Shown: positions 31,522 to 49,855 of the stretch, piece by piece
How the letters are laid out: each line of letters begins with the position of its first letter
Position numbering within the stretch: the first letter of the stretch is position 1
Assembly: GCA_965218785.1 (NCBI GenBank)
Contig: OZ244650.1
Coordinates: forward strand, 1,888,001-1,952,000
Direction of reading: 5' to 3'
Source of the DNA: Nitrosopumilus sp.
GTDB taxonomy: Archaea > Thermoproteota > Nitrososphaeria > Nitrososphaerales > Nitrosopumilaceae
Length of the DNA: 64,000 bases
Notes under the pieces: model-generated
The model's database searches: none
The model's input: only the letters and a program-made list of their open reading frames with translations
Told to the model about the DNA's origin: nothing
Program-made: the position numbers and the translations under genes

Positions 31522-31783
31522 TGTGATCGGTCTTGAATTTCCTTATATTAAGTTAAACCTAGATGAGCTCTAATTTAGCACCGTAAATCAGAGATGAATG
31601 TTTTATCAAAATTTATCATGAGATTAGCCGTTTGGCTGGAAATAACGGGAAAACATTAAGATGAATCACAAGATATCAAATATTGTTAAAATTTCCAAGA
31701 AAGATCATTGAGAAAAAATATCCGTCAAAAAATATGTACATATCTTAGAAAATTATTTAAAGATAGAAATTCAAGTCATAAAA

Positions 31784-32701: not shown

Positions 32702-32849
32702 TTTTTTAATCAAGATATCACTGCTGTATAATCATAATTTTTTTCTTTTAGAAATCTATGAAATCATATTAAAGCATATTACAATCTCCAACATCATTTT
32801 GATAATAACAATCCAAATCACATTTATTTTTAGAACTGGTTCCCCAAAA

Positions 32850-33710
32850 TTAGATTATAGTTTCTTTTCTTCTTTTTTTGTTGACAATTTCATATCCCAG
32901 TCTTTTGATGATGGCATCCAGTAATTGGTACAAGTCGGTTTTAGTTGTGTATTTTCTTGAATAAGGTCCTACCGTGGTTCTTTTTCCCCGTGCAAGTTCG
33001 TATGCTTTATGAACAGACCCATCTCCAAAAATCCCTATGGCATTTCCATGATTTCCTTTAACTGCAGAAAAGCATGGAATATCAGTTGGTCCGTCACCCA
33101 GATAAATCATGTACTCAAACGGTATTCTTCTATTTTCAGGAGCGATTGAATCATTAACACTGTATGGATTTTTTCTCATCATTTCTACCGGGATTCCCTT
33201 GTTAATAGCATAAAGAAATTTTGTTTTTTCTGTAAATGTAACACTTGATTTTATTCCAGTGATTTTTTTTGTTTTTTGATCTTCTAGAAGCTTTGCAGCA
33301 TAGATATCATCAAAATGTTTGTTTAGTGGACTTCCTTTGATGATGTCTTCAATTCCTGAGGAGATGATATAAGATTCTAATTTTATTCCGGCATCAACAA
33401 AATCACTGTTTTTATTGACGGATTTTTTTAATTCTGAGATAAACTTGGTTACCCCCTTGTACGGTTTGACTTTTTTTCCAAAATCAAAAAGTTTCTGATT
33501 GGTATTTTGCTTGATTTCTCCGGAATTCATCATATCTACAATTGCAGTCATCCAGGCCAATGGTGGATCCCATCCCTGTTGGACCTGTTTTGCAATTTTC
33601 TTGTTCCAAAACGACTCTATGTCTATTCCGTTACTTTCTAAAAGTGCACTTGTAGTATCTGGCGCCAAGGTATCATCACAGTCACAGATTATTGCAATAA
33701 TATTTTGCAT
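32850..33710 (-). CDS. HAD-superfamily phosphatase
   Basis: DCDDTL (motif I), IISSG (II), K (III), YLGDGPTD (IV). Confidence 0.88.
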   Translation of the reverse strand: MQNIIAIICDCDDTLAPDTTSALLESNGIDIESFWNKKIAKQVQQGWDPPLAWMTAIVDMMNSGEIKQNTNQKLFDFGKKVKPYKGVTKFISELKKSVNKNSDFVDAGIKLESYIISSGIEDIIKGSPLNKHFDDIYAAKLLEDQKTKKITGIKSSVTFTEKTKFLYAINKGIPVEMMRKNPYSVNDSIAPENRRIPFEYMIYLGDGPTDIPCFSAVKGNHGNAIGIFGDGSVHKAYELARGKRTTVGPYSRKYTTKTDLYQLLDAIIKRLGYEIVNKKRRKETII

Positions 33711-34263
33711 ATTGACCTACTCTAAAGTTTGAATAAAAACAGTTTGCTTTTGATTTTACATCTCATTATGACATGCTAAAGGGGTGGGTATACAAATTGT
33801 CAGGTTATGTTACTTGGAGTAGTAACAGGAATAGAAATTCAACATCAGTTATGGAGATTGATTTTACAATGGAAATTCCAGCAGTAATAAAAGATGTTAA
33901 AATTAACACAAGGGATCGATACCCAATTGGTCTAGAGTATTACTAGCAGGTTTTCGGCGTGGTCCCATTAGCCTCAAGGGTACAAGTATCGATGTATGCT
34001 ATACTAAATCCTCCTATTTAGGAATTTCGTAGGACACCTGAATCTTGATATTTCCATCCATATCAAAAAGACGTTAAATGAGGGTTGTTCATGACATGAT
34101 TATCGTAATAATAGAACCATCATACGTGAATTATTATCAGACTCTAATAGAATATGTTGCTAATCGTTGTTGCAAAAGAGATCCAAAATGAGCTCAAAAA
34201 ACAACATTTTCCTCTCCTCCCCCTCAATCGGATATCAAAAGTGGAATATGTTTCCAATCTCAC

Positions 34264-35124
34264 TTAGCAAAAGTTCTGAGTGGAATAAACACCTTCACCA
34301 CCATTAATTATTACGCCGACTCCGATTCTATCATACTCTTCATCCAGAATATTTTCCCTATGTCCGGGACTGTCCATCCAGCCATCAACTAGTTCCTTTG
34401 CAAGTGTCTTCTCATCAGCTATCCAATTGTAAAATATTGCAATTCCAACAGTGGTATATGAATAATATGTATGACTTTGGTAAATGTTCTCGGCTAGTCC
34501 CTCCGTATAATATGAAAGGTATTCTTTCTTACATGAATATCCTGCCTTGTTTCCCCTGTCTGTTGAATCCTCTCCTTCAGGGGAATAATGTGAAAAATAA
34601 TCCCTGTCGGACATGTCCCAGCTGTGGTCTCTGGCAATAGAGTCGATTTCTGAAATTCTGGTTAATTTTTCAATTCCTCTCTGTTGTCGTTCATCATTTG
34701 TAAAATTGTAAATATGTTCTTCAATTAATGAAGGATTAAATTCGGACTTTAATCTTACTGGCAAAGTTGAAACATCCGGAATCTCAATCTGGGATATGGG
34801 GTATGTGGAATTATTAATTATATCATCAATAGAGTCTGGAAATTCGATTTTAGATATTGTGGTAATGGTACTGTCTGGAATATGGATGGTGACAAAATCA
34901 GTTATTTCCTGTATAATCTGTTCTAATTTTTCTTGATCTATTTTGATGATTTCATTGGAATAGCCAAAAACTATGATTATGGTACACATCACGATTGTAA
35001 TAGTTAATAATGCCGCAACCTTCTTTCCCGACTGCCTTCTCTGAGAGCGACGGTATGATTTTTTCCCACAGCTTGTACAAACAAAATATTCTGGAGTATA
35101 GACGTAACTATGATTACAGCCCAT
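34264..35124 (-). CDS. CAP/SCP-domain membrane-anchored protein with N-terminal Zn-ribbon
   Basis: N.ER...G, ARDHSWDM...YFSH, AENI, WMDSPGHRENIL, TQNFC; CNH...CTSC before a TM. Confidence 0.9.
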   Translation of the reverse strand: MGCNHSYVYTPEYFVCTSCGKKSYRRSQRRQSGKKVAALLTITIVMCTIIIVFGYSNEIIKIDQEKLEQIIQEITDFVTIHIPDSTITTISKIEFPDSIDDIINNSTYPISQIEIPDVSTLPVRLKSEFNPSLIEEHIYNFTNDERQQRGIEKLTRISEIDSIARDHSWDMSDRDYFSHYSPEGEDSTDRGNKAGYSCKKEYLSYYTEGLAENIYQSHTYYSYTTVGIAIFYNWIADEKTLAKELVDGWMDSPGHRENILDEEYDRIGVGVIINGGEGVYSTQNFC

Positions 35125-35413
35125 TGATTCTCTTTACAAATTATGAACTTAAACATATTGGATGTTGCACTGGTAAGTTAGTGGGTGTTTTGACTGCTAG
35201 TAAAGTTGGGACGTTTTGCAAAATTTTATCCCAAATAGCGATCTTCTTTGTATTGAAAAATTGAGGGCACGATATATCCTGATGATCAGTTCCATTTTAC
35301 ACCAGTCGGAATTGAGCTCACGCATGATCTGAAAAACTTGCCCGTGTGTTAGTTTCTTCGGAGATGGGTTAATTACACACAAATTCTATTAGATAGATGT
35401 GAGATTGCATAGA

Positions 35414-36205
35414 TTGAAAACCAGAATTAAAATCATAATTCCAATAATTATCGCAATTTCTATTTTAGCAGCTGTATTATTTGATACGGCATATTATACT
35501 GTACATAAAGACTGGGAGGGATTTATTCTGGATTATTTTTCTGATAACGAATTCCAAGAACTACTCAAGGGGGATTACGTGCAGGAAGCAGATATTGTAA
35601 CTATTACTGACAAAGATCTGGAGGAGGTTCCCAAATTAAAGGAGTTGATGGACATGGTAGTGATAAAGGAATTCCCATTTAATGAAATCGGTAGTGTCGC
35701 ATCTACGGTTGATACGATAAAAGAATATCACAGATACTATGCAATCATTTTAGCAGAAAAATATTCAAAAAATTCTGAGGACTTTTTTAGAACATCCACT
35801 GTGTCCGCCGATATATTGGAAAAATATCCTAATGCATATAGATATGAGTTTGATGGCGCACACTATGTATACAACGGAGTGCAGTATTCCTGGTTCAATG
35901 GATCTATGCTCATCCGTGAAGAGGGAGAATTGACAAATATTAGCACTGCAATAATGAATCATCCCCTAGATCCAAATCGCGACATATGGGCCACTATCAC
36001 CGATGAGGATTTGGAAAAAATGCCGCTGCTCAAAGAGGCAATTGGCAAAATTGGAACCATAGAGAAAAATATTCAGGTTCGCAGTGATAACATGTTACAT
36101 GCGGAATATCTCTCAACATATCAAAGATGGTTAGATGAAAAAACCTCCTCTTCCGTGTTTGAGTATGATGGGAAATATTTCCACGTGGGATGGTGGATGG
36201 AATAG
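35414..36205 (+). CDS. Membrane-anchored/secreted hypothetical protein with an internal repeat
   Basis: TTG start MKTRIKIIIPII; ITDKDLEEVPKLKE and ITDEDLEKMPLLKE repeat. Confidence 0.7.
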   Translation: MKTRIKIIIPIIIAISILAAVLFDTAYYTVHKDWEGFILDYFSDNEFQELLKGDYVQEADIVTITDKDLEEVPKLKELMDMVVIKEFPFNEIGSVASTVDTIKEYHRYYAIILAEKYSKNSEDFFRTSTVSADILEKYPNAYRYEFDGAHYVYNGVQYSWFNGSMLIREEGELTNISTAIMNHPLDPNRDIWATITDEDLEKMPLLKEAIGKIGTIEKNIQVRSDNMLHAEYLSTYQRWLDEKTSSSVFEYDGKYFHVGWWME

Positions 36206-36206
36206 A

Positions 36207-36500
36207 ATGAAAACTAGATTTTTGATAATTATCATCACGATTCAATCCCGGTGTCATTTTCCGGTGCTACACAATTCTTAGAGACATTTCATTTTCTCTC
36301 AATTCTGTAAACTGGGATGAACCCGAGATTATGAGTTTTGATAGATTAATCAGATATTCAACTGTTGAGAGGTTTCCTTTACAGACGTTAGTGTAACGCA
36401 TTAATACAGATTTGGCACAGAGTAAGTATGGAAAAATCTAAACTCAAAGATGAGGAACCGTGGGGGAAAAGAGATGATGAAGTATTTGAGAGATATGAAA
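36207..36500 (+). pseudogene. Degraded remnant of an MKTRFLII-type secreted protein gene
   Basis: ATGAAAACTAGATTTTTGATAATT directly after the previous stop, followed by early stops. Confidence 0.35.
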
Positions 36501-37110
36501 AAAGCCTGAAAAAATCAAAGTAATCTAATGACTCATGTTCTTCATGTACAATTTGACAAAGAATTCAACAAGTACTAAATACGCCTGATTCAAACTGCAA
36601 AATTGATACTGTAGCAGTTGTTCTGCCGATATAATTAGTTCAAAATTTGCCAATATCCGTTGTCCGGATTTAATTAATGATAAAATAAGAAGAAGAGAGC
36701 TACTGAGAATTTGTATGTTTATGCCATTCTCAAAAAATATAATTTGATTTTTGTAGGAGTCAGAAAAATCGGAAAGAAAGTACAACTGTATAACGATAAT
36801 TAAAAAGTTATAGCGGTCACAGAAATCATCGGTTTTACCATTATGATCAAAATAGATCATACTGATCAATGAATAATGGATATCCAAGGCATATCAACAA
36901 ACACTACGCATGATACGTATCATGCAATCATATCAGGAAAAACACTGTCTCTTTTTTGCATCCAAAATCAAAGCACACATTTTCCACATGTTAGCATGAA
37001 TAGCCATAATAAAATATGAATCATAATCAAATGAAAGATCCCGTCAAAATCAAGCAATTAAATGCAAGGATTTACCGATTAATACTGCTGATTCCAAATG
37101 GTAAAATACA

Positions 37111-40100
37111 ATGAAATTTGATGATGAAAAACTAGCGGCAATAGAGCATACCGGTTCTGCCCTACTAGTTACTGCAGGTCCCGGAAGCGGCAAGACCAGG
37201 GTAATTACAGAGCGAATAAAATTTTTGATAAAAACGGGATTAAGACCAACAGAGATTTTGTGTTTGACATTTTCAGAAAAGGCCGCACACGACCTCAAAG
37301 ACAGACTGGAAAACGATGATGAGATTAAGGAAAAAATCGACGTCTCTGAGATGCAGATTAGTACCTACCATTCGTTTTGCAGGGATTTACTAATAGATAA
37401 CACAACATCTACCGGACTGGGAATGAGGGGCGGGATACTAGACCGTCCGGTGTTTCTGGTGTGGGGCGTTCAAAACATCGACAAGTTTGGATTCGATGAT
37501 CACATAGAGATCGGAAACAATGCAGTTGATCTGATTGAAAAGATGGTTGACGGAATCAGTACGTTTACCAGTGAGTTGGTGACCCCCGACGAATTAGAGG
37601 AATACGTCAAAGCAAAATTCGACGGTTCTAAAAAGATAAAAGACGAGGAGGAAAGGGAGTATCTTCACATGCTGGAGAATCTCGTAAAGATGTACAGGGA
37701 GTACATCAGATTCAAAAAGGAAAACGACATTATGGACTTTGATGATCTCATAGTAGAGGCAAATAATCTGCTTGGCAACGAATCAAAACCCCACGCGTTA
37801 AACCAGGCCCAGAAAAGATACAGGCACATCCTAATTGACGAGTTTCAGGACAACAACTTTGCCCAGTTTTCAATTGTAAAAAAGCTGGCCAAAAACGGAA
37901 ACGTCACTGCAGTGGGAGATGCGGATCAGAACATCTACAGATTCCAGGGGGCATACACCCAGATCTTTGAGGATTTTGAAAAATCATTTCCGGATCACAC
38001 CAAGGTAGAACTGTTAAAAAACTGGAGAAATCCCAGACATGTAATTAGCTTCTCAAACCAGCTGTTAAGGCAAGACCGGCTTCGAGTACCAAAGGAAATC
38101 ACACCTACAAAAGACGACCCCCAGAAGGTGGGCGTAGTGGAATGCTCATCAGAGTATGCCCAGGCAGAATTTATCAGAAAAAAGATTCGTGAGTTGATGG
38201 ATGGTTCAGACTACAAATTCAGTGATTTTGCCATCCTATCTAGAAAACAAAAAGACGGGCTCAATGTCGCGCAGATTCTGGTATCAGATGGAATACCTGT
38301 AAAATACATTGGAAAATCAGAGATTCGAAACTCTGCCAAAGCAAGGATGCTGTTTGCATTTTTACGAATAATTGCAAACCCAATGAGATCCATGATCAGT
38401 ATCATCAGGATTTTACAAGAGTATGGAATATCAGAGCAGAACATCTCCAAGATAAATCACGAGGCCAAGATCAGGGCACAAGGCAGAACCGATGGAGATT
38501 ACGCCTATGACGTGCTCTCGGATTTGAAGATAGCGGATCTTACTCAGAAAAAAGAGCTGTCTGACATTTTTGCCATGATTCAGGATTTTATCAATCTTGC
38601 AAAAAACTCATCCCCGTCACAGACCATCTATCAGATAATTCGAAACAAGACAGATATTTACAAAAATATTGCAAATGACGACTCTATAACTAATTTCATA
38701 GAGCGCTCGATTCTAAATGACATTATAGAAAGTGTATATGATTTTGAAAAGATAAACACCCAGGCGGGAATCAAGGAATTCCTGGAATTTGCAGATGAAT
38801 TAGATAAATTCGACATTGAGATAAAACATGATACAGTTGATTCTGATGCGGTGCAAATATCCACAATTCACAAGAGCAAGGGGCTGGAATTTAGAACCGT
38901 CTTTATCATCGATGTTGCAACATACAAGATCCCGCTAAAGTATACTGAAAAACCGTTTTTTGTGCCAGAAGAACTCTCAAAAGGCGTAAAACCCGCATCT
39001 GATGCAAAGGAGGAATTTCTGCGAGAGGAAAGAAGGATATTCTATGTGGGCATGACTAGAACCATTGATAATCTGTTTTTGATGTATCCCACACAGTATG
39101 AGAGCAGAAGCAAGGCAAACAAGGCATCAAAGTTTCTTGTAGCGTTAAAACCCGAAGAAAATGACGATGTTGATTTTAAAAGACATGATTCTATTGCAAA
39201 TCCAGAGGTTTCAACCACGTTTGATGCAATAGAGATTCTCAAAAACGAAAAGCTCGAGCAAACAATCAAGAACCTTCACAGTGAACAGTATGAAAGTGCG
39301 GTTCAGAGAATCCAAGATTTGGCAAGGATTAGCTACTTTCAAAAAAACCAAGAGTCAGATGGATTCTCTTTTGGTGGATTGCTAGAGCAGTCACAGGGCA
39401 AGGAACTTGAGGCACAGTTACTTGGAACACAGCCAGAGAAATTGGGGTTTTCAAAAAAGAATCTCTCCTTTTCCAAATTTGATACGTACGAGAGATGTCC
39501 AAAACAGTTTTGGTATCAACACGTACTCAATGCACTGCCTGAAAACCAGGAGATGCCCGCACTATACAAAGGAAGTACGTTTCATGAGATCGTAGAGAAC
39601 TCGGCTAAAAGACAGAAGGAGGGCAAGATGGATGATGCAGAAGCGCTGCTAGGCGAACTAGAATCAATATGGGATCCAAAAAAATACCTTACAAGCTCGG
39701 TTCAAAAGCAACAGCAGGATAAGAAATCCCTTGCACCGGCACTACAAACATACCAAAGGTGGTCCAGATCAAATCCCAATGAGATCGTTGCGTTGGAGCT
39801 GCCATTCTCAATTCACATCGGAGGATTCCCCGTAAATGGCGTGATAGACAGAGTAGAAAAGACCCCCGAGGGCGAGTATGTGGTAATAGATTACAAGACA
39901 GGCGGGAAAAATAAGAAAGTTGATGCTGCAAACAGTGTGCAGTTGAACCTGTATAGCATGGCACTAAAGGAAAATCCGGATTTTGGTAGATACCCCATCA
40001 AGGCCATGTTTTTCTATGTGGAAAAGCCAGAAGGCGGGCAATTCTTTGAGTACAAGGTGGATCCTGCCAAAGTTGACGAGATAAAAAGCAAGTTGGAAGG

Positions 40101-40203
40101 GTATGTCAGCGCAATTCAAAACAAAGATTTTGATGCAAAGCCCGGATTGTTTACTTGCAAATGGTGTGATTACTCGGATATTTGCGATGAGGCTGAAAAA
40201 TAG
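37111..40203 (+). CDS. UvrD/REP SF1 helicase fused to a C-terminal PD-(D/E)XK nuclease (AdnB/AddA-like)
   Basis: AGPGSGKT, LTFSEKAA, IDEFQD, VGDADQNIYRFQGA, TIHKSKGLEF, EERRIFYVGMTR; then CPKQ, GVIDRVE, IDYKTG, QLNLY, CKWCDYSDIC. Confidence 0.93.
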   Translation: MKFDDEKLAAIEHTGSALLVTAGPGSGKTRVITERIKFLIKTGLRPTEILCLTFSEKAAHDLKDRLENDDEIKEKIDVSEMQISTYHSFCRDLLIDNTTSTGLGMRGGILDRPVFLVWGVQNIDKFGFDDHIEIGNNAVDLIEKMVDGISTFTSELVTPDELEEYVKAKFDGSKKIKDEEEREYLHMLENLVKMYREYIRFKKENDIMDFDDLIVEANNLLGNESKPHALNQAQKRYRHILIDEFQDNNFAQFSIVKKLAKNGNVTAVGDADQNIYRFQGAYTQIFEDFEKSFPDHTKVELLKNWRNPRHVISFSNQLLRQDRLRVPKEITPTKDDPQKVGVVECSSEYAQAEFIRKKIRELMDGSDYKFSDFAILSRKQKDGLNVAQILVSDGIPVKYIGKSEIRNSAKARMLFAFLRIIANPMRSMISIIRILQEYGISEQNISKINHEAKIRAQGRTDGDYAYDVLSDLKIADLTQKKELSDIFAMIQDFINLAKNSSPSQTIYQIIRNKTDIYKNIANDDSITNFIERSILNDIIESVYDFEKINTQAGIKEFLEFADELDKFDIEIKHDTVDSDAVQISTIHKSKGLEFRTVFIIDVATYKIPLKYTEKPFFVPEELSKGVKPASDAKEEFLREERRIFYVGMTRTIDNLFLMYPTQYESRSKANKASKFLVALKPEENDDVDFKRHDSIANPEVSTTFDAIEILKNEKLEQTIKNLHSEQYESAVQRIQDLARISYFQKNQESDGFSFGGLLEQSQGKELEAQLLGTQPEKLGFSKKNLSFSKFDTYERCPKQFWYQHVLNALPENQEMPALYKGSTFHEIVENSAKRQKEGKMDDAEALLGELESIWDPKKYLTSSVQKQQQDKKSLAPALQTYQRWSRSNPNEIVALELPFSIHIGGFPVNGVIDRVEKTPEGEYVVIDYKTGGKNKKVDAANSVQLNLYSMALKENPDFGRYPIKAMFFYVEKPEGGQFFEYKVDPAKVDEIKSKLEGYVSAIQNKDFDAKPGLFTCKWCDYSDICDEAEK

Positions 40204-40357
40204 AGTTGGCTGGAAACTAGTTAATTTCTCTTCAATAATGTATTTGTCGATTTACAAGTGTAAAAATCTAGAATTAGTAGTAAACTTAGTCTTTGCCCAC
40301 TTGCTACAGATTTTTGGAGAAATTCTATTTCATTTCTATATTCTCTCATAACCCAAC

Positions 40358-41579
40358 GGCGTTGTCCATAAATTCATAAAAATCACCAATTACGAGGCAT
40401 CATAACCTACCCATATCCTTGGATTTCATGCCGATTCATCATATTCCAAATGACAATGCAGTATTTACAGATATAATTCATGCTTTGATAATGCCACAGG
40501 CTAGCGATGTAAATGCATTTTCACATTTATAAAATCACACGATCAGATTATAGCTGATACATCGCAGACCAAGTTCTACAGTTATGCCCTTATTTGATAT
40601 TGTCTTTACCGCGCTGCCGAGTCTCTTCTTCATTGATGAGAATGCCATCTCCACAAGACTGCATTTGGGATATACCTTGTCAAATGATTCCCTGTCTTTT
40701 TCATACCAATCCAGCATGTTTATCCGTGCACTATATCCTTTTTTGACGTATCCTTGTTTGGGATATATCACAGGCATTCTTCCGGAACCTACAATCTTTG
40801 TACAGTTGTCATTGCAAGTATGCCGCATCAAGTAAAACGTAACCATCCCCATCGAGTATGTCTAACAACATCTTTCGAAATACCGGAGAGTCGTGTGCGA
40901 TTCTCTCTGTCACATAAAACGCAGAGATCATTCCCTTTGGTTTGCAGAGTATGTGCAGTTTTACAAATTCGTGCCTAGATATGAGGCCTTTTTTTGCATC
41001 TTCCCATTCCTGATATCTGTTCTTTGAGAGTCCACTTGAATCCTCGCAGTGTTCCTACCACATGTCTTATGGCATGTATGCCCGCATTTTCCGTATGATG
41101 ATACGATCCAGACGATGTCGAATCGTTTAGGGTGGATTTTGAAGGTATCTTTTTTAACTTGAAGAGTAGTATCTGTGTGGAGTTCAAGAATGATACAGTA
41201 TCACGATAAGATAAATTGTATCTTTCTCGAAGTATAAGACACATTACCATGGATGCCGGATCAAGATCTTGACGTCCACGGTTCTTTGCCTTGAAAAAGG
41301 GCTGGAGTATGTAAAATAGTTTTCGCATTCGTCGGAGCATCTTCTTGCTCTCCTGTTTGTGCTTTATTTCATAGGATTTGCCATATCCTGGTTTTCATGT
41401 CCATTTTTTCTGACTGGTAGTGATTCCTGTATGATCTGTTTTTGTATCGTTTGTTTCTGCATTGAACTTTTACTTGTCATTATATTGGGTAGAACATACT
41501 GATTTTTAGCTTTTCGGTCGGATGTTCTTTTGATCTTTAAGCTTTTCGGCATATTTTGATTGAATTTGCGGACAACGCC
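40358..41579 (-). mobile_element. IS5-family (IS903-like) insertion sequence, 1222 bp, transposase decayed
   Basis: TIRs GGCGTTGTCCATAAATTCA (40358-40376) and reverse-complement GGCGTTGTCCGCAAATTCA (41561-41579); 9-bp TSD TAACCCAAC at 40349-40357 and 41580-41588. Confidence 0.9.
40535..41462 (-). pseudogene. Frameshifted DDE transposase
   Basis: Fragments RGR....SMVMCLILRERYNLSYRD...KKIPSKSTL and YPKCSLVEMAFSSMKKRLG...ELGLRCISYNL in different frames. Confidence 0.82.
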
Positions 41580-41595
41580 TAACCCAACAAAACCC

Positions 41596-41601
41596 TTTAT
41601 A
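41596..41601 (+). promoter_or_regulatory. Candidate TATA box for the three-gene operon
   Basis: TTTATA between the IS right end and the TTG at 41647. Confidence 0.35.
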
Positions 41602-41646
41602 GAAAAGTATATCACTTTGACTTCTCGTAATAAATTAAGATACAAA

Positions 41647-43014
41647 TTGACGGATAAGATTTCTTGGACCAATCCTTCTGTAAAACTATTAGCTAAAGAT
41701 CAAGATCCTGTAGATGTTGTTGTAGGTAAAACTAGAGAACTTATCTTTGATGCCATAGATGGAGGATGGAAAGGTCCGCCATACGATCCAGTGAGTCTTG
41801 CAAAAAATTTAGGTTTTGATGTAATTCCTAATGAAGACGTGTTGGATGCACGGGTAATTTCAAAAGGAACCAATGTACAAATCGAGTATAATCCTAATAA
41901 ATCTAAAACAAGAATTAGATTTTCTCTTGCACATGAGATAGCTCATACTCTATTTCCAGATTATAAAGAATCTATTAGAAACAGATCAAAACAACACAGT
42001 AGACCTGATGGCTGGCAATTAGAATTATTATGTAATATTGCTGCCTCTGAAATACTAATTCCTGTTGTACCTCCATCTAATTTAGGTCATTTAGTAATCA
42101 CTATGAATAATTTGATTGAGATAAAAAAAAGATATGATGTTTCAATGGAATCAGTACTTTTACGAATGATCAAATTAACAACACAGCCTATTACATTTTT
42201 CTCAGCTGCAAGAAAAATAGATGATAAAAATTCATCTTTCCGTATTGACTATGTAATTAATTCCAAAACTTCCTTGTTGAATATTAAATCTGGAATGGAA
42301 ATTCCATCAGATAGTGTTCTATCTGAATGTTCTGCTATTGGTTTTACTGCCCAACGGAAAGAAAAATGGTTTAAAGAATTGCCTTCCTTAGATATTGAAT
42401 GTGTAGGTGTTTCACCATATCCAACTAATGTTTGTCCCCGTGTTATTGGAATTATTAAAACAAAATCAAAAAAAAATACTGAACCATTACGTATTCAATA
42501 TCTTGTAGGTGATGCAACAGAACCACATGGAAATGGGGGGAAAATGATTGTACATATTGTAAATGATCAAAGCAAAAGATGGGGGAGAGGTTTTGGATTA
42601 AACATTTCTAAAAAATGGCCCAAACTTGGAACCAATTTTGTTAAATGGGCTAATCTGGATTCATTGACTCTTGGAACATGTCATATTTTTAATGCTTCTA
42701 ATAATTTAGTAATAATTAGTATGATCACTCAACATGGTTATGGGAAATCTAAAAAACCTAGAATTCGTTATAGTTCTCTTGCAACTTGTTTGGAAATTGT
42801 TGCTATTGAAGCTAAGAAAGAATCAGCTAACGTTCACATGCCTAGAATTGGTACAGGATATGCAGGCGGTGATTGGAAAATTATTAGTGAAATGGTTGAT
42901 GATTTATTAATTAAACGAGGTATTGAGGTTACAGTATATGATCTGCCTGAAACACAACGACCCAGAGAAAATTATAACTTGTTAGATTTTTCATCTCCCG
43001 AATTACTTTGTTGA
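41647..43014 (+). CDS. ImmA/IrrE-family Zn metallopeptidase fused to a C-terminal macrodomain (DarG-like)
   Basis: RFSLAHEIAH (HExxH), ELLCNIAASEILIP; C-terminal YLVGDAT, IVHIVND...WGRGF, HMPRIGTGYAGGDW..I. Confidence 0.88.
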   Translation: MTDKISWTNPSVKLLAKDQDPVDVVVGKTRELIFDAIDGGWKGPPYDPVSLAKNLGFDVIPNEDVLDARVISKGTNVQIEYNPNKSKTRIRFSLAHEIAHTLFPDYKESIRNRSKQHSRPDGWQLELLCNIAASEILIPVVPPSNLGHLVITMNNLIEIKKRYDVSMESVLLRMIKLTTQPITFFSAARKIDDKNSSFRIDYVINSKTSLLNIKSGMEIPSDSVLSECSAIGFTAQRKEKWFKELPSLDIECVGVSPYPTNVCPRVIGIIKTKSKKNTEPLRIQYLVGDATEPHGNGGKMIVHIVNDQSKRWGRGFGLNISKKWPKLGTNFVKWANLDSLTLGTCHIFNASNNLVIISMITQHGYGKSKKPRIRYSSLATCLEIVAIEAKKESANVHMPRIGTGYAGGDWKIISEMVDDLLIKRGIEVTVYDLPETQRPRENYNLLDFSSPELLC

Positions 43015-43018
43015 GGTG
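43012..43018 (+). promoter_or_regulatory. Shine-Dalgarno-like TGAGGTG before the kinase-synthetase gene
   Basis: Overlaps the previous stop codon, 8 nt upstream of TTG 43027. Confidence 0.55.
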
Positions 43019-43026
43019 GTTCTTAA

Positions 43027-44625
43027 TTGCCCGATAAATTCATACTAATATCAGGACCAATATCTTCTGGAAAATCTAAACTCTCCAATCAACTTTCAGA
43101 TAAATTAGATGCTCGTTTGATAAAAACACGAGATATTTTGATACGTACAAAAAAAATCAACTCAAATGATCGAATATCTTTGCAAAAAGAAGGAGATAAA
43201 CTAGATAAAAAAACTGATGGAAAATGGGTTTTAGAAGATTTAGATTGTGTAGTTAGAAACAATACTAAAGAAAATACTATTTTTGTTGTTGATTCTGTAC
43301 GTATTTCTCAACAAATTGAAAGAATTAGAGATGCATTTAAACCCGTCATTCATTTACATCTCACAGCTCCAAATGATGTATTAAAAAAAAGATATCAGCA
43401 ACGTTACAAAAAACAAGAAAATGTTCCATCATATAAACAAGTCAAATGTAACAAAACTGAAAAAAATATTGAAACTTTAGCACCTATAGCTGATGTCGTT
43501 ATTGATACCAATCGTTGCAATGAAAATGATGTTTTTGTACGTGCTGCAAGTAGGATGTCCTTATTTGGTGAAAATGGAAATGGAATAGTTGATGTTGTAG
43601 TTGGAGGAGAATATGGAAGTGAAGGCAAAGGTCAGATTGTAGCCTATTTGTCTAAAGAATATGATCTTCTAGTTAGAGTTGGAGGTCCAAATGCAGGACA
43701 TAGGGTTTTTGCAAAACCTGAATCTTACACACATCATCATCTTCCATCAGGTACAAAAAAAAGTACTGCTAAACTTTTGTTAGGACCCGGTATGGTTATC
43801 AATCCTAAAAATTTACTTACTGAAATTATGGAATGTGATGTAGAATCTGACAGATTAAGTATTGATCCCCAAGCTATGATTATTGATGAAGAGGATATTA
43901 AATCTGAAATTGAATTGGTAAAAACTATAGGTTCTACGGGTCAAGGTGTAGGCGCTGCAACTGCTAGAAAAATTCTCAAACGAAATAAAAATACACTTCT
44001 CGCTAAAGATGTTCGTGACTTAAAACAATACATTAAACCTGCCATTAAAGTACTTGAAAAAACATTTGCAAATAATGGACGAGTTTTATTAGAAGGGACT
44101 CAGGGAACGGGTCTAAGTATTCATCATGGTTCATACCCATATGTAACATCTAGGGAAACTACTGTTTCAGGATGTTTGGCAGATGCTGGAATTCCACCAT
44201 CTCGTGTAAGAAAAGTGATAATGGTATGTAGGACATATCCCATACGAGTTAAAAACCCAGAAGGTAAATCGTCGGGACCTATGAGTCAGGAAATCAGCTT
44301 AAACGAAATAAGTAAACGTTCTAAAATTCCATTAACTGAACTAAAAAAAACAGAAAGAACTTCTACTACTAACAAAAAACGAAGGATTGGTGAATTTGAT
44401 TGGGATCTGATAAAAACAGCTACATTCTTGAACAGTCCTACGGATATTGCATTAACCTTTGCTGATTACTTGTCAATTAAAAATCGAAGTGCAAAAAGAT
44501 TTGAACAATTAACAACAGATACAATAAATTTAATTGAGGAAATAGAACGTGTTACAAAGGCCAAAATATCTTTAATTGGCACTGGTTTTAATTCTAGAAG
44601 TATTATTGATAGACGGGATTGGTGA
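43027..44625 (+). CDS. P-loop nucleotide kinase fused to an adenylosuccinate synthetase homologue of PurZ/PurZ0 type
   Basis: N-terminal ISGPISSGKS, VVDSVR; C-terminal GGEYGSEGKG, GPNAGH, HLPSG, IGSTGQGVG, EGTQG, YPYVTSR, RTYPIRV, TSTTNKKRR, LTFADY. Confidence 0.85.
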   Translation: MPDKFILISGPISSGKSKLSNQLSDKLDARLIKTRDILIRTKKINSNDRISLQKEGDKLDKKTDGKWVLEDLDCVVRNNTKENTIFVVDSVRISQQIERIRDAFKPVIHLHLTAPNDVLKKRYQQRYKKQENVPSYKQVKCNKTEKNIETLAPIADVVIDTNRCNENDVFVRAASRMSLFGENGNGIVDVVVGGEYGSEGKGQIVAYLSKEYDLLVRVGGPNAGHRVFAKPESYTHHHLPSGTKKSTAKLLLGPGMVINPKNLLTEIMECDVESDRLSIDPQAMIIDEEDIKSEIELVKTIGSTGQGVGAATARKILKRNKNTLLAKDVRDLKQYIKPAIKVLEKTFANNGRVLLEGTQGTGLSIHHGSYPYVTSRETTVSGCLADAGIPPSRVRKVIMVCRTYPIRVKNPEGKSSGPMSQEISLNEISKRSKIPLTELKKTERTSTTNKKRRIGEFDWDLIKTATFLNSPTDIALTFADYLSIKNRSAKRFEQLTTDTINLIEEIERVTKAKISLIGTGFNSRSIIDRRDW

Positions 44626-45287
44626 TTGAATTAGATTTAATCGCACTAGTAACACAATATCCTTTCTTATATCATATGGCTGAATCTGGTAGTTGGTCAA
44701 ACATAAAAAAAAATGGACTTTTGAGTACATCTGCTCTTTTGGATTTATTTGAGATTAAAGGAGAAGAAAGAAAAATAATAGAATCCAATTGGAGACCCAA
44801 AAATGTGACTATTAACCATAAAAAATATGGTAAAGCTGTTATTAGAGATCAAAAACCATTACCTGAAAATAAACTTGAACCACTTTTAGACAATATATCT
44901 ACAAAATCATTTTATAAATTATTGAATGGAAAAACATTTTTTTGGTTAAGCAAAGAGAGATTACAACGATTGCTAAATGCAAGAGCATATAGAGAAAGTT
45001 CTCATGATGTATTGACAATAGATGCAAAAAAACTAATCGATAAATACGAAGATCAGATTGCTCTTTCTCGGATTAATTCTGGTGCAGCTATTTTTGGCGT
45101 GGGTCGTCGCGGTCGATATACATTTCAAAAAATTAAGGATTATTCCTATGACGATATTAAGAAAAAACAAAAAGAAGCAATTGCTGAATTGGCGGTTGAT
45201 TATGCAGTGCCAGATATTGTTAATCATACACTTCGTGTAGAAACATGGAAAGGTAGTTTTCCTACGAGAGTCATATGGAAAAAATAG
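44622..45287 (+). CDS. DarT-like ADP-ribosyltransferase-fold protein (DUF7002-like)
   Basis: LYHMA....W.NIKKNGLLS, TFFW, LSRINSG, IAELAV...VPDI parallel the DarT motifs YH.T...NL.SI...GLLS, PFYF, N, AE.LV...VP; GTGA overlap with the upstream stop. Confidence 0.7.
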   Translation: MIELDLIALVTQYPFLYHMAESGSWSNIKKNGLLSTSALLDLFEIKGEERKIIESNWRPKNVTINHKKYGKAVIRDQKPLPENKLEPLLDNISTKSFYKLLNGKTFFWLSKERLQRLLNARAYRESSHDVLTIDAKKLIDKYEDQIALSRINSGAAIFGVGRRGRYTFQKIKDYSYDDIKKKQKEAIAELAVDYAVPDIVNHTLRVETWKGSFPTRVIWKK

Positions 45288-45683
45288 TATTTGATATTTG
45301 ATTGTGTATAATTTCTACGTTTCTTCTAAATACAATAAGCTATAATCTACACATAAAAAAGCCCAAAAAAATCAATATTCAGAGTCAACTCCAACAAATT
45401 CTTTCTTTTTTCTTGTAATTACTTGACATCTCTTATGATACATATCTAATTGAGACGGGCATAATAATTTACAAAAATAACTTTCAGTTATTCTCTAGTA
45501 ATAAAGCATTCTCTTTATAATCCTCGAATTCTCCAATTACCAAATTATAATAAACTATACTGGTAAGAATTTTTATTTAACAGAATTTCAGAGCAAGCAG
45601 TCATAAATTAAGAGTTGATTCTTTAGACATGTTATAATTCAAGAATATAAGCACAAAAGAATCACGATGTCAAGCTAGCAGAG

Positions 45684-46829
45684 TTACAACGCTTTTAGTT
45701 TTTCTTCGGCCGTCTTGAGGCCTGCCTGTGTATCTATCTTATATCCCATCATTGCCAGCGTAGACGAGATTGCAGAGATGGTCCTCATTACGTGGTACGG
45801 ACTGACCTCACCCATGCATCCAACCCGAAACACCTTGCCTTTCAGATCACCGAATCCGCCTGCAACTAGAACCTTGAATTTATCAGCCAGCGTGCTTCTA
45901 AAGATTTTATCCTCTAGTCCGTCCAGATAGTTCAGTGCAACAATTGAGATGGAACGATCTTCTGGTTTTGCAAACGGAGTAAGACCAATCGCACTCAATC
46001 CCGCGTATAACGCATCAGAGCAGACCTTGTGGCGGTTAAAGACATTTTGCAGTCCCTCTTCGAGCATAATTGAGAGTGCCTCCCTGTATGCATACAGCAA
46101 GGGCAAAGCGGGTGTAAACGGAGTGTGTTTTTCCTCGTCATAATACTTGAAGTATCTTGCCAGATTGAAATACATGGTGGGTGGTGGATTTTCAATCATG
46201 TATTTTTTAGCTTTGGCACTGACAGATATCGGTGAGATGCCAGGAGGGGCAGCAATTGCCTTTTGTGCGCCGGTCATACATACATCTACATTCCATTTAT
46301 CCACCGGGAGATGGGCACCGCCCAGCAGTGATACGGAATCTACAACATAGAATGCATCGTTTCTTGATGTCAGATCAGATATCCTGTCAAGATAGTTCAC
46401 CATTGTTCCAGTCGAGGTTTCATTGTGAACGACATAAAATGCCTTGACATCCTTGTTATTATCAAAGGCCTCTTTTACCTGATCAAATGTCGCATTCTCC
46501 CCTGGTGGGGTCTCCAGCCGGATGATGTTGGCGCCCTGACCCTCAATAAGTTGTGATAACCTGTTACTAAATTCCCCATTTACGGGAATGATAATTTTAT
46601 CGCCTTTTTTAACCAGATTAATAACGCCTGCTTCGACTGCACCTGTTCCTGATGCGGATAATGCCACAATGTCATTCTGTGTTTCAAACACCTGCTGGGT
46701 TTTTGCAACCACATCAGTATACAATTCTACAAAATCATCGCTTCTATGATTGATAATGGGTGCAAGCATTGCCCTCATAACTCTGTTAGGTACATTTGTC
46801 GGACCGGGAAGCATTGAAAGATATTCCAT
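45684..46829 (-). CDS. Class V aminotransferase (alanine-glyoxylate/serine-pyruvate family)
   Basis: MLPGPT, HNETSTG, VDSVS, TGAQKA, FRVGCMG. Confidence 0.93.
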   Translation of the reverse strand: MEYLSMLPGPTNVPNRVMRAMLAPIINHRSDDFVELYTDVVAKTQQVFETQNDIVALSASGTGAVEAGVINLVKKGDKIIIPVNGEFSNRLSQLIEGQGANIIRLETPPGENATFDQVKEAFDNNKDVKAFYVVHNETSTGTMVNYLDRISDLTSRNDAFYVVDSVSLLGGAHLPVDKWNVDVCMTGAQKAIAAPPGISPISVSAKAKKYMIENPPPTMYFNLARYFKYYDEEKHTPFTPALPLLYAYREALSIMLEEGLQNVFNRHKVCSDALYAGLSAIGLTPFAKPEDRSISIVALNYLDGLEDKIFRSTLADKFKVLVAGGFGDLKGKVFRVGCMGEVSPYHVMRTISAISSTLAMMGYKIDTQAGLKTAEEKLKAL

Positions 46830-46869
46830 GTACTGTCTAGTGTCAGTGGGATACGGGGTTTATTTATAA

Positions 46870-47364
46870 TTAGAGATTCTTCAGACGTTCTCTGGCACCA
46901 GTCTCAATTAAAAAATTCCTTGTCCCCTCCGGTACCAGATCGTCCCATTTTTGATCGCCGGCAATCAGATCCCGGATGTGGGTTCCAGATAGTTTGTCCC
47001 TGTTTAAAAACGGGATGGGTGCCACCGGAACTCCCCTCCTTGAGTACAGATGTCCGGCAAGTTCGTCATTTGAGAAGACCATGTCAAATTTTGGGACGAT
47101 GGCATCTATCTTCTCAATCCATTTGATGTGGTTATCCAGATCCGGTATATGGTAAATCCAAACCCTCTGCCTTGAGTCATCATCTATCGAGGATAGAATC
47201 ATCTCCGTTCTCTCTTGGGCGGAAAACGGGTTGTTTTTTTCTACAGGTCTGTTGGAGCTGCCCAGACCTATCCACAGTTTTTCGACTCTGGATAACGCAA
47301 ATCGTAGTGCCTCAAGATGGCCCAGGTGAAAGGGCTGGAATCTTCCTATCAATAGGCCGTTCAT
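46870..47364 (-). CDS. nadM: Nicotinamide-nucleotide adenylyltransferase
   Basis: IGRFQPFHLGH, NPFSAQER, SGTHIR. Confidence 0.93.
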   Translation of the reverse strand: MNGLLIGRFQPFHLGHLEALRFALSRVEKLWIGLGSSNRPVEKNNPFSAQERTEMILSSIDDDSRQRVWIYHIPDLDNHIKWIEKIDAIVPKFDMVFSNDELAGHLYSRRGVPVAPIPFLNRDKLSGTHIRDLIAGDQKWDDLVPEGTRNFLIETGARERLKNL

Positions 47365-47413
47365 ACAGATATCAGGAATGTCTTTTTAAAAAAACTATCA
47401 TAAAGAGTCGTGA

Positions 47414-48478
47414 TTGGAAGAAACGGTGGATTTTCTCAAAATCAACGGGGGGCACGGCGAGGGAGGCGGACAGATAATCCGCTCTGCAGTTACGCTTTCA
47501 TGCATTACAGGCAGGCCTGTCCATCTAGAAAACATAAGAAGGAATAGAAGGATCCCCGGACTGCAGGCACAGCATCTAACGGTGATAAGAATCCTGCAAA
47601 AGATTGCAGGTGCCAGGGTAGCCGGAGCGGAGTTGGGCTCTGCTGAATTGAAATTTATTCCAGGCAACATCAAGAGTCTGGAGCTAGTCGAGGATGTCAG
47701 AACTGCCGGAAGCATCTCCCTGATTTTACAGGCCTTGATTCCGGTGGTATCTGTTTCACAAAAAAGACTGAACCTGACAATCAAAGGAGGAACAGATGTG
47801 TCGTGGAGCCCCTCCACGGATTACACCCGGCACGTGCTAAGGGAGGCGTATTCAAAAATGGGCATAGAGTTTTCCATCCAGTTACACAGGCGCGGCTACT
47901 ATCCGAAGGGCGGCGGTCAGATCAGTCTGCAGGTGCATCCATCCCGTGTAAGACCGGTATCGTTTTCAAAAAGAAGAACAAAATCCGCCAGGTTGATCTG
48001 CACGTTCTCAAAACTCCCCGCAGAGACAATCAAGAGTCAGATAGCAGATATTGAGGAGAGACTGACAAGAGAGGGCTTTGCTGTCAGAACGGAGATTCAA
48101 AATCAGGACGCAGCAGACCCGGGGGCATCCCTGCTGATTTACAGTGCTGATGAGCATTCAGTAGTGGGAAAGAACACGCTGTTTGATAAAAAAACGCAGG
48201 GGTTTGATGTGGATCTCAAAGAGTTTGCCGGGGATTGGCATGGCGTCGATAAGAACCTGGCAGACATGATCGTGGTTCCTGCGAGTCTGACCAGTGGAAA
48301 AACGGTGTTTCAGGTCGGGGAGATCACAAGGCATCTAGAGACGAACCTGTTTGTGGCATCAAAGATCACCGGCTGCAGATACGGCATTGGAAAGACTGCC
48401 AGCGGATTTGAGGTAATCATAGAGGGTGTCTCAAACCCCGGCATCAAGCAGGGATGCAAAAAACAGGATGGCAACTGA
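47414..48478 (+). CDS. rtcA: RNA 3'-terminal phosphate cyclase
   Basis: GEGGGQIIRSA, GL.AQH, GGTDV, RGYYPKGGG, HLETN. Confidence 0.93.
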   Translation: MEETVDFLKINGGHGEGGGQIIRSAVTLSCITGRPVHLENIRRNRRIPGLQAQHLTVIRILQKIAGARVAGAELGSAELKFIPGNIKSLELVEDVRTAGSISLILQALIPVVSVSQKRLNLTIKGGTDVSWSPSTDYTRHVLREAYSKMGIEFSIQLHRRGYYPKGGGQISLQVHPSRVRPVSFSKRRTKSARLICTFSKLPAETIKSQIADIEERLTREGFAVRTEIQNQDAADPGASLLIYSADEHSVVGKNTLFDKKTQGFDVDLKEFAGDWHGVDKNLADMIVVPASLTSGKTVFQVGEITRHLETNLFVASKITGCRYGIGKTASGFEVIIEGVSNPGIKQGCKKQDGN

Positions 48479-48931
48479 CAGGACCACCGTAACCTCGCCG
48501 AGGATGATTATCTTTTTTCTCAGTTTTCGAATCTCGGATTCGGGCATCTGGTTTGACATGATCTTCTCCTCAACGTCGCTGCGGATTATCCTGACATGGA
48601 CGGCATAAATAATGACTAGGATGACAACCAGGATGATTTTGACGGTTAGAAACGTTCCATAGCTTGTTGTTACAAGAAGATCAGGCCTGCCAAACAACAG
48701 CGTGTGTGAACTGTATAGTCCAGTTACCATTAGGATAATCAGTGACGGAACAGCTATTTTGTTGAATCTTCTTCCAACGCGGATCATTATCTGCATTCTT
48801 TCCTCAAGGGAATCAGTCATTGTTTTGAGAAGCGGCGAGAATACGATGCCAATGAAGAGTGCGCCGCCGACCCAGATTGCAGCAGAAACCAGGTGAATCC
48901 AGGTAAGAATTGCCTGTTCCAGCGCAGCCAT
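48431..48931 (-). CDS. CopD-family copper resistance membrane protein
   Basis: WIHLVSAAIWVGG, TGLY, YG..L.VK. Confidence 0.82.
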   Translation of the reverse strand: MAALEQAILTWIHLVSAAIWVGGALFIGIVFSPLLKTMTDSLEERMQIMIRVGRRFNKIAVPSLIILMVTGLYSSHTLLFGRPDLLVTTSYGTFLTVKIILVVILVIIYAVHVRIIRSDVEEKIMSNQMPESEIRKLRKKIIILGEVTVVLSVAILFFASLLDAGV

Positions 48932-49013
48932 GGAATACGGTATTTTGGATCAAATATTATGTATTTGGATCTTAACAACGTTTTTTAGTTGTACATGGTC
49001 TGAAAGCATTGAA

Positions 49014-49529: not shown

Positions 49530-49781
49530 GTTCTTCAGACCTCTTGGAGTACGTTGATGGGAAATTCAAAACGAGATACTGGTTTGTACCAAACACCGGA
49601 CGGGATTTGCTGGCTTTGGTCCTTGGCCACATCTGATGAATTGGCAAAGGCAATGGTCTCACATTTGAGCTTTGATTAAATGATTTGACTGATAATCACG
49701 TAACGTATAATGGCACATCAATTCCTTGGGTTTTATGAAACTAGTGGCAGGCAGCAGATGATTCGGCCTGAATTGATGGAG

Positions 49782-49855
49782 TGGGCCGAGAGAGATTCGA
49801 ACTCACGATCACCGCCGTGTCGAGGCGGTATCCTAACCAGCTAGACTACCGGCCC
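49782..49855 (-). tRNA. tRNA-Val(GAC)
   Basis: GGGCCGGTAGTCTAGCTGGTTAGGATACCGCCTC-GAC-ACGGCGG...GTTCGAATC...GGCCCA cloverleaf. Confidence 0.96.

Follow-up and report, generated by a model that had tools for sequence, protein, structure and literature searches.

A mobile archaeal cassette uniting a DUF7002 ADP-ribosyltransferase fold, a macrodomain-peptidase and a kinase-fused PurZ-like ligase as a candidate conflict system

A stretch of 64,000 nucleotides from Nitrosopumilus sp. (assembly GCA_965218785.1, contig OZ244650.1, positions 1,888,001 to 1,952,000; hereafter the window) carries at 41647–45287 a cassette of three + strand genes, here termed g1, g2 and g3, which encode an M78 peptidase joined to a macrodomain, a nucleoside monophosphate (NMP) kinase joined to a short PurA-like ligase, and a DUF7002 protein with the fold of an ADP-ribosyltransferase (ART). 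This cassette is horizontally acquired and mobile, as its patchy distribution and mobile contexts indicate, and it is most likely a self-contained operon acting as an anti-virus or toxin-antidote system. To the complete chain that we favour, namely a mobile conflict cassette in which reversible ADP-ribosylation would be coupled to the synthesis of a succinylated 2-aminopurine nucleotide, we assign a probability of roughly one half.

Three intact, co-oriented and tightly packed open reading frames (ORFs) span the cassette, confirming the original prediction, made from the bare DNA letters, of AT-rich, translationally coupled genes. The GC content is 0.32 (42001–45000) vs 0.445–0.48 for the housekeeping genes to the right (46001–49000). 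The stop codon of g1 (TGA, 43012–43014) runs into a Shine-Dalgarno-like GAGGTGG, and the TTG start of g2 at 43027 follows 12 nt past this stop; the stop of g2 (TGA, 44623–44625) shares a GTGA overlap with a GTG at 44622–44624, and a g3 start at TTG 44619 would correspond to a 7-nt overlap. The features of the cassette are the following:

41647–43014, + strand: g1, TTG start (a TTG upstream at 41560 is also open), 455 residues, M78 zinc peptidase, middle domain and macrodomain
41932–41946, + strand: HEIAH, the HExxH zinc-binding motif of g1, residues 96–100, from the translation
42487–42954, + strand: g1 macrodomain, residues 281–436, SCO6735/BT1257 subclass of the ALC1-like macrodomains (phmmer against PDB)
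43013–43019, + strand: Shine-Dalgarno-like GAGGTGG, overlapping the g1 stop, 7 nt upstream of the g2 start
43027–44625, + strand: g2, TTG start, 532 residues, NMP-kinase domain and short PurA-like ligase
43027–43581, + strand: N-terminal domain of g2, residues 1–185, NMP-kinase fold, Walker A motif GPISSGKS (Pfam AAA_18, 6.9e-10; AAA_33, 5.7e-6)
43582–44625, + strand: C-terminal domain of g2, residues 186–532, short archaeal-type PurA-like ligase of the Ser type (Pfam Adenylsucc_synt PF00709, 5.3e-59)
43615–43632, + strand: GSEGKG P-loop of the ligase domain
44455–44466, + strand: T-F-A-D motif of the ligase domain
44619–45287, + strand: g3, TTG start or GTG at 44622, 222 residues, DUF7002 (Pfam PF22531, 8.3e-62)
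44673–44675, 44937–44945 and 45186–45188, + strand: g3 motif residues H19, F107-F108-W109 and E190

Recurrence of the cassette was followed from both of its ends. A DUF7002 alignment was searched against contigs representing one genome per species (185,579 species), the best 80 of 420 stretches were kept, and the fetched loci were sorted by local tblastn with six parts of the window proteins. The genome loci are distributed as follows:

47 of 80: full colinear set (peptidase, middle, macro, kinase, PurA-like, DUF7002)
2 of 80: full set with an insertion or rearrangement (L007, L013)
6 of 80: kinase-PurA-like and DUF7002, without g1
3 of 80: PurA-like piece only, one of them at a contig end
22 of 80: DUF7002 alone, two of them too near a contig end to judge

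All parts are found in the same order in 49 of the 80 loci, g2 and g3 overlapping by a few bases in most. Within these 49 ordered cassettes the kinase-ligase fusion of g2 is one ORF in every case, and g1 is a single ORF, its fusion kept, in 46. When a g2 alignment was searched against metagenome contigs instead (80 of 530 relatives kept), a DUF7002 gene was located directly 3′ of g2 in 69 of the 80 loci and a weaker DUF7002-like match in eight (five at E <1e-3, three at E 0.004–0.37), three loci being truncated at the contig end. Upstream of g2, 73 loci have at least the macro part of g1, two lack this part and the other five are truncated. Both searches bear out the claim that the trio forms one recurrent cassette. 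Among the fetched loci g2 was never seen without a g3-type gene and g3 does occur alone, so that g2 depends on the ART and not the reverse. Judging by this asymmetry, g2 may be controlled by the ART or act downstream of it. In eight loci (L114, L117, L129, L132, L137, L154, L159, L171) the gene after g2 is merely 22–27% identical to g3 of the window, constituting a divergent ART branch or a replacement. One metagenome contig (L099, 6001–11348) holds two facing copies, g2 and g3 on the + strand vs g1 and g2 on the − strand.

Hosts of the cassette belong to two archaeal and many bacterial phyla, and a search of 60 relatives of this genome, 36 from its genus and 24 from its order, returned no DUF7002. 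In the g3 tree, the window copy falls into a supported clade with Nitrososphaerota and Bathyarchaeia bins, its closest copies belonging to other phyla of archaea, and bacterial phyla are interleaved elsewhere. Three of 2.9 million viral contigs searched harbor a g3 relative, two of these with the whole trio. On one of them (L082, 3435–10672) the trio directly follows genes for a CI-like repressor (helix-turn-helix (HTH) and S24), CII, an HTH_36 replication-type protein and a NusG-like protein. Variants of the cassette occur next to further conflict-type genes: at three Myxococcota loci (L044, 1226–7818; L046; L058), a stand-alone M78 peptidase, a 395-residue protein without family assignment and a HerA ATPase matching defence-type HerA models (PADLOC, 5e-29) precede g2 and g3, and the macrodomain is missing; on a Sorangium chromosome (L069, 272–10633) g2 and g3 follow a STAND/HerA-like NTPase, a large WD40 protein and an EAD1-trypsin-like peptidase. 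The latter layout is known from the NTP-dependent conflict systems of multicellular bacteria. We also surveyed the two nearest genes on each side of 34 cassette loci (134 ORFs). Some flanks contain type I and II methylases of restriction-modification systems, HNH nucleases, mads genes, ArdC, AbiEii-like ATPases and HTH-M78 proteins, which suggests, as a tally of families and not as an enrichment test, that the surroundings are mobile and defence-rich. No recurrent fourth gene was detected among the 134 flank proteins, and the HAD protein once proposed as a fourth component finds no support: no homologue of the candidate ORF at 32850–33710 is present in 160 cassette loci. The product of this ORF shows DxDxT at residue 10, yet searches of Pfam at 1e-3 and of PDB gave no match.

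Carriage by viruses raises the question of whether the cassette is counter-defence or offensive cargo of mobile elements, disarming host immunity or a competitor. Such a role would be in line with the whole trio being present on two of the three g3-bearing viral contigs, one of them beside lysogeny-control genes, and phage-borne macrodomains that neutralise DarT are reportedly known. We nevertheless regard it as hardly likely, given three relatives in 2.9 million viral contigs vs 420 stretches in the one-genome-per-species contigs, and given that most copies are chromosomal with no phage genes nearby.

The case for a conflict cassette begins with g3. The AlphaFold2 model of this protein (mean predicted local distance difference test (pLDDT) 93.8) matches Mycobacterium tuberculosis DarT2 best among PDB structures in a Foldseek search (7yk3_C, 2.9e-4, template modelling (TM) score 0.41), followed by Escherichia coli DarT1 (8baq, 4.2e-4) and then by cholera-type ART subunits and Tpt1. 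Among 147 homologues taken from the fetched loci, H19 is conserved in 147 of 147, F107 and W109 each in 142 of 142, and E190 in 135 of 136; R59, R76, D77, N153 and G155 are likewise invariant. The prediction of a DarT-like ART is thereby upheld, with a fold nearest to DarT and invariant His and Phe/Trp positions, and the conservation is compatible with an active ART using a His / Phe-Phe-Trp / Glu set. The protein does not match the DarT family itself (PF14487/DUF4433): Pfam assigns DUF7002 alone, neither NCBIfam nor PHROGs gave a match, and PADLOC yielded nothing better than 0.011. DUF7002 is a large family, with 2195 clusters in one search. A search for domain fusions of DUF7002 returned two longer proteins. 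In the first, P0391, a candidate for a natural g2-g3 fusion, the last ~35 residues of the g2 part are unaligned, and it was read as a frameshift; the second, P0392, a C-terminally cut DUF7002 with a uracil-DNA glycosylase domain, is a single sequence and was judged too weak for use.

The protein encoded by g1 would supply the counterpart of such a transferase. Its macrodomain is closely similar to BT1257 (PDB 2afc, 5.1e-34; 2fg1, 8.6e-34) and to Streptomyces SCO6735 (5e3b, 1.8e-28) by phmmer, and the motifs VND, QHG and GxxxG, aligned to N27, Q85 and G128 of SCO6735, are kept in at least 90% of 47 g1 homologues. Close similarity and the Asn, Gln and Gly residues together place it in the SCO6735/BT1257 subclass. 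According to PMC9411070, SCO6735 takes off the ADP-ribose that DarT attaches to thymidine in DNA; it has no counterpart of the catalytic Lys found in DarG and TARG1 and requires Asn27, Gln85 and Gly128, and all three proteins belong to the ALC1-like macrodomain class. The proposed assignment of the g1 macrodomain to a class that removes ADP-ribose from thymidine in DNA thus holds through the SCO6735 match (PMC9411070). The Pfam Macro model by itself scores 15.1 bits vs a cut-off of 22 and the DarG model NF048014 of NCBIfam 22.6 bits vs 250. We therefore regard g1 as a predicted eraser of the DarG/TARG1/SCO6735 class that is not DarG. The N-terminal half matches Peptidase_M78 (PF06114, 1e-11, 45.2 bits vs a cut-off of 22) and capP of PADLOC (1.4e-17), pointing at an IrrE/ImmA/CapP-type enzyme, and at least 90% of the 47 g1 proteins in the alignment retain each residue of the zinc site (H, E and second H of HExxH). 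At the domain level PADLOC matched capP, RmrA and DarG (2.3e-7). For the middle domain of 100 residues, the ESM Atlas returned unnamed clusters with a best score of 0.83, below the level of a lead.

M78 switch peptidases respond to DNA damage or single-stranded DNA. With the CapP/CapH, IrrE/DdrO and ImmA/ImmR switches the cassette shares the M78 peptidase and its intact HExxH; it differs in having no gene for an HTH repressor and in the fusion of the peptidase to a macrodomain.

The similarity to DarTG is evident and incomplete. In both, an ART (here one whose nearest solved folds are DarT2 and DarT1) is encoded with a macrodomain of the ALC1-like class in tightly coupled genes. Unlike DarTG, the cassette lies outside PF14487 and the DarG model, g3 has the motif H / F-F-W / E instead of the H-Y-E of DarT, the g1 macrodomain is of the Gln-type SCO6735 subclass whereas that of DarG has a catalytic Lys, g1 is organized as peptidase, middle domain and macrodomain whereas DarG has a C-terminal DarT-binding domain instead, and there is an obligatory third gene, g2. 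The original prediction of an extended DarTG-like system consequently fails as a statement of membership, with no PF14487 match and 22.6 of the 250 bits demanded by the DarG model.

The resemblance nevertheless invites the view that the cassette is an addiction (toxin-antitoxin) module stabilising its carrier element and having no anti-virus role, in which the ART or the nucleotide made by g2 would be the poison and the macrodomain-peptidase the labile antidote. Tight gene coupling, the foreign and patchy nature of the cassette, its presence in a prophage-like contig and, in the window, its position adjoining remnants of an insertion sequence (IS) all agree with such a module, as does the DarTG-like pairing of ART and macrodomain itself. 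The antidote gene, though, would be the first and largest, unlike the usual small labile antitoxin, the HerA and STAND contexts point to immunity and not to plasmid maintenance, and the solitary g3 genes considered below pose the same problem here as for a defence role. Weighing these points, we hold pure addiction to be unlikely. Many toxin-antitoxin systems also defend against phages, so that the addiction and defence readings overlap.

What separates the cassette from ART-macrodomain pairs is g2. Its start position is ATG in 64, GTG in 20 and TTG in 16 homologues. The kinase domain was modelled by AlphaFold2 with pLDDT 91.9, and Foldseek retrieved the Sulfolobus adenylate-kinase-related structure 3lw7 as best match (TM 0.68–0.73), ahead of UMP/CMP and adenylate kinases; a profile of 26 homologues likewise found 3lw7/3h0k (~1e-10) and then adenylate kinases. 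An N-terminal P-loop kinase fused to a nucleotide-converting enzyme is also the layout of the anti-phage dCTP deaminase, and the kinase part indeed matches the PADLOC dCTPase model (9.8e-7) and, weakly, the NCBIfam anti-phage deaminase model. The likeness is confined to the kinase part, the catalytic domain of g2 being a PurA-family ligase. Among PDB chains this ligase is closest to Pyrococcus horikoshii PurA (2d7u, 2.3e-53) and also matches phiVC8 PurZ (6fko, 1e-38). In 120 of 120 family members, the P-loop reads GSEGKG vs GDEGKG in PurA, Ser replacing the catalytic Asp13, and K, H and Q of the PurA catalytic set are retained. The corresponding Ser is one of the residues that distinguish PurZ from PurA, and it contacts the substrates (PMC8342488). 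The host genome has a separate PurA of 333 residues with GDEGKG and TKLD. A housekeeping PurA function for g2 was rejected on the grounds of this second, Asp-type enzyme, the Ser-for-Asp exchange and scores under the cut-offs of the PurA models. The donor-base motif T-F-x-D, in which F and D are each found in 120 of 120 members, has the Phe of PurZ (N-F-x-N) and the Asp present both in PurA and in translated PurZ0 (T-M-x-D). Since this Asp of the guanine-binding motif is retained, the phosphate donor of g2 is probably GTP.

We searched for the ligase family in 1.84 billion cluster representatives (50% identity) and obtained 9408 proteins at E ≤0.001. Among the best 150 of the 9408 matches, Ser occupies the catalytic position in 106 (42 kinase-fused, 64 unfused), Asp in 3, Gly in 3 and Asn in 1, and 45 are fragments or lack the motif. 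Quick maximum-likelihood trees (LG+G4; support by the SH-like approximate likelihood ratio test (SH-aLRT) only) were built after dropping these 45 rows, with the Asp-type PurA of the host as outgroup. The window protein falls into a separate g2-type clade (50 rows, of which 40 are fused and 9 unfused or cut; SH-aLRT 99–100) within a Ser-type radiation; this clade groups with Ser-type enzymes, apart from Asp-type PurA, and is separate from phage PurZ (100) and PurZ0 (100). PMC12884076 places four archaeal relatives of PurZ, with Ser or Gly at the catalytic site, basal to the phage groups. The closest phage relative of the g2 ligase, with 37% identity (1e-52), is a gene of Bacillus phage vB_BpsS-140 (L091, 2950–4071) that is annotated as purA, has GSEGKG and N-F-A-N, and is likely a PurZ-type enzyme.

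PurZ and PurZ0, the N6-succino-2-amino-2'-deoxyadenylate synthases of phages with 2-aminoadenine (Z) genomes, share with g2 the short archaeal-type PurA fold and the exchange of the catalytic Asp for Ser, and PurZ0 (GSEAKG, T-M-x-D) also keeps the Asp of the guanine-binding motif. PurZ0 reportedly uses GTP, according to a 2023 paper. The donor preferences listed in PMC12884076 appear in an order that reads opposite to this. In contrast to both phage enzymes, g2 belongs to a separate clade, is fused to an NMP kinase, is cellular, scores under the PurZ cut-off and has no DatZ, MazZ or DpoZ partner, none of these Z-genome pathway genes being found in the cassette or among recurrent flanks.

These missing partners also bear on the proposal that the modification is self-directed: 2-aminoadenine-type nucleotides would go into the nucleic acid or metabolism of the very element or host that makes them, with ADP-ribosylation serving in regulation. 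The Ser-type, PurZ-like nature of g2 would suit such a pathway, and the monophosphate could come from the NUDIX gene of a Pseudomonas operon (PMC12522546), in the way that MazZ provides it to phage PurZ (PMC8342488). The cassette, however, encodes neither DpoZ, DatZ nor other Z-genome genes, g3 is found on only 3 viral contigs, and occurrence in cellular genomes of many phyla together with absence from close relatives is a misfit with housekeeping. A self-directed pathway consequently appears very unlikely to us.

What the analysis shows is which domains are present, that their catalytic residues are conserved, how the genes are ordered and linked, and that the distribution is patchy and the contexts mobile; the substrates, the order of reactions and the biological role given next are inferred. 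As an active ART, g3 would transfer ADP-ribose from NAD+, most likely onto a nucleic-acid base or a nucleotide, and the g1 macrodomain would remove this mark. The IrrE/CapP-type peptidase of g1 may act as a switch through which DNA damage or infection controls the system. The g2 ligase, probably with GTP as phosphate donor, would condense aspartate with a guanine nucleotide to yield a succinylated 2-aminopurine nucleotide, and the kinase domain of g2 would phosphorylate substrate or product. The succinylated nucleotide could either drain or poison the pool or be what the ART acts on or with. More tentatively, cells may use PurZ chemistry proper: the cassette would make a 2-aminoadenine-type nucleotide (N6-succino-2-aminoadenylate or the de-succinylated Z form) for an immune or toxin mechanism, the ART would work on or with the modified purine, and in that case the phage Z-genome enzymes would have a sister lineage, or possibly their source, in the kinase-fused clade. 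We consider this possible, with the odds leaning against it.

The strict dependence of g2 on g3 is also what two steps of one synthesis would produce, and a signalling system could be built on it, in which the ART and g2 make an ADP-ribose-nucleotide conjugate, the macrodomain is the sensor and the M78 peptidase, as effector, cleaves proteins of the cell or the virus. Macrodomain-sensing Thoeris effectors are reportedly known, the peptidase comes without an HTH substrate gene, and the M78 enzyme stays with g2 and g3 in the Myxococcota variant despite the loss of the macrodomain. Nonetheless, the macrodomain retains the hydrolysis residues of SCO6735 and so fits an eraser better than a sensor, no computed result shows the ART acting on a small molecule, and we know of no ADP-ribose-nucleotide conjugate of this kind. 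Signalling is hence an improbable account of the cassette, and we retain the view of a conflict cassette with a reversible mark.

This view has to accommodate several findings that weigh against it. The fold match between g3 and DarT is modest (TM 0.41), and a profile of 22 g3 homologues retrieved no PDB chain, hence no solved ART, at E up to 10. The claim of a PurZ-like synthetase stands as regards the Asp-to-Ser exchange (120/120) and the grouping in the tree with Ser-type enzymes, and falls as regards PurZ itself, since g2 reaches 211.7 bits vs the cut-off of 300 on the PurZ model NF038379 and lies outside the phage clades. The PurA models TIGR00184 and NF003295 are both missed as well (294.4 bits vs 368 and 214.5 vs 395.55), and the T-F-x-D motif is neither PurZ-like (N-F-x-N) nor PurA-like (T-K-L-D). 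The M78 peptidase has no HTH repressor partner, g1 lacking an HTH domain and the cassette an HTH gene. The flanks are heterogeneous, no family being common to more than 4 of the 134 flank proteins. The solitary g3 genes also weigh against it: in 22 of the 80 genome loci g3 stands alone among housekeeping-type genes, all five solo-g3 genomes searched contain no g2-type gene (housekeeping PurA only) and no g1-type macrodomain, and the solo state requires at least eight changes on the g3 tree and thus arose repeatedly. Such repetition is hard to reconcile with a lethal toxin requiring a g1-type antidote. The solo copies retain the catalytic residues, and g3 is either non-lethal by itself or restrained in some other way. 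A scan for partner genes, covering ten neighbours at 8 of the 22 solo loci, found nothing in common among them (alcohol dehydrogenases, DnaE, thiolase, a STAND NTPase and others without assignment). A prediction of the g2-g3 complex, run without controls, scored 0.00 vs a mark of 0.32, which speaks neither for nor against binding.

Part of the linkage is already in print. A survey of Legionella ARTs (BMC Genomics 2025, PMC12522546) describes the Lmac_3114 ART-like family as distant DarT homologues with the motifs Hxx / FFW / xxE, with an adenylosuccinate-synthetase gene nearby in 60% of cases, reports a Pseudomonas operon of ART, AAA, adenylosuccinate synthetase and NUDIX genes, puts the family in bacteria only and offers the general idea of regulation through purine synthesis. 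Judging from shared motifs and neighbours, and not from a sequence comparison, the Lmac_3114 family would be DUF7002. The connection of an ART with adenylosuccinate synthetase is thus not new (PMC12522546), this being the one paper among those searched to touch on it, and the available excerpts of this survey make no mention of a peptidase-macrodomain gene or of a Ser-type (PurZ-like) synthetase. In agreement with the original prediction, no characterised system with the combination described here was found in PADLOC or in the papers searched. PADLOC-DB 2.0.0 has no model of g2 or g3, its matches to g2 being confined to the kinase part, and a literature search whose scope took in subscription journals only partly found no experimental study of the cassette; no paper naming DUF7002 was found, and Lmac_3114 was named solely in the Legionella survey. 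No mention of adenylosuccinate, PurA or PurZ is made in PMC9503650. Sequence tests place the cassette outside both DarTG and the PurZ pathway, and it has one part from each, together with an NMP kinase and an M78 peptidase. Reversible nucleic-acid ADP-ribosylation systems are the known kind to which it is closest, and g2 is the part without precedent in a cellular system.

In the window, the cassette forms the last part of a low-GC island (GC 0.27–0.43 vs 0.43–0.50 beyond it). Further features of this region are:

31500–45650, no strand: low-GC island of ~14 kb, between an FKBP gene (30685–31521) and a class-V aminotransferase gene (45684–46829)
40535–41340, − strand: broken IS transposase pieces, a DUF772 N-terminal part and a DDE_Tnp_1 C-terminal part (Pfam 7e-4 and 0.0055, below cut-offs)
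41596–41601, + strand: possible archaeal TATA box, TTTATA, 46 nt upstream of the g1 start, as read from the sequence

Besides the cassette and the IS remnants, Pfam identifies in the island genes for a NucS/DUF5655-like protein, a CAP-domain protein and a UvrD-PD-(D/E)XK helicase-nuclease. Of the predicted island next to an IS, the island is thus real and the IS is reduced to broken transposase pieces with weak Pfam matches. No second full copy of the 40535–41340 remnant exists in the genome, where only short fragments recur. Short pieces at both of its ends (40358–40452 and 41382–41581) recur at several genome sites with 71–88% identity, the body of the remnant does not, and the recurring pieces may be IS termini or a repeat resembling a miniature inverted-repeat transposable element. 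Neither island edge has a tRNA, and flanking direct repeats were looked for and not found. The sole RNA family match in the window, tRNA-Val (GAC) at 49781–49855 (−), is located ~4 kb past the island and not at its edge. Within the island, the gene at 37111–40203 (+) encodes a UvrD-type helicase of 1030 residues fused to a PD-(D/E)XK/Cas4-like nuclease, with strong PADLOC matches to GajB-type (5e-76) and DRT-associated (5e-73) helicase models; the genes at 31784–32701 (+) and 34264–35124 (−) encode a NucS_C/DUF5655-like protein and a CAP (cysteine-rich secretory protein family) domain protein, respectively, and the ORFs at 32850–33710 and 35399–36205 have no family match. The FKBP26-type gene bordering the island (30685–31521, −) has four tandem copies of a 33–39 nt unit at its 3′ end (30681–30831).

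If the proposed chain holds true, the cassette would be the first cellular system that couples ADP-ribosylation of nucleic acids to the synthesis of a non-canonical purine nucleotide, and it would add a new mechanism to the nucleotide-based strategies of immunity. The parts are small, conserved and easily expressed, making the question directly testable. Under the same condition, a function would be given to the large DUF7002 family, with its 2195 clusters and 420 genome stretches, and the finding would bear on the origin of the phage enzymes for 2-aminoadenine DNA.

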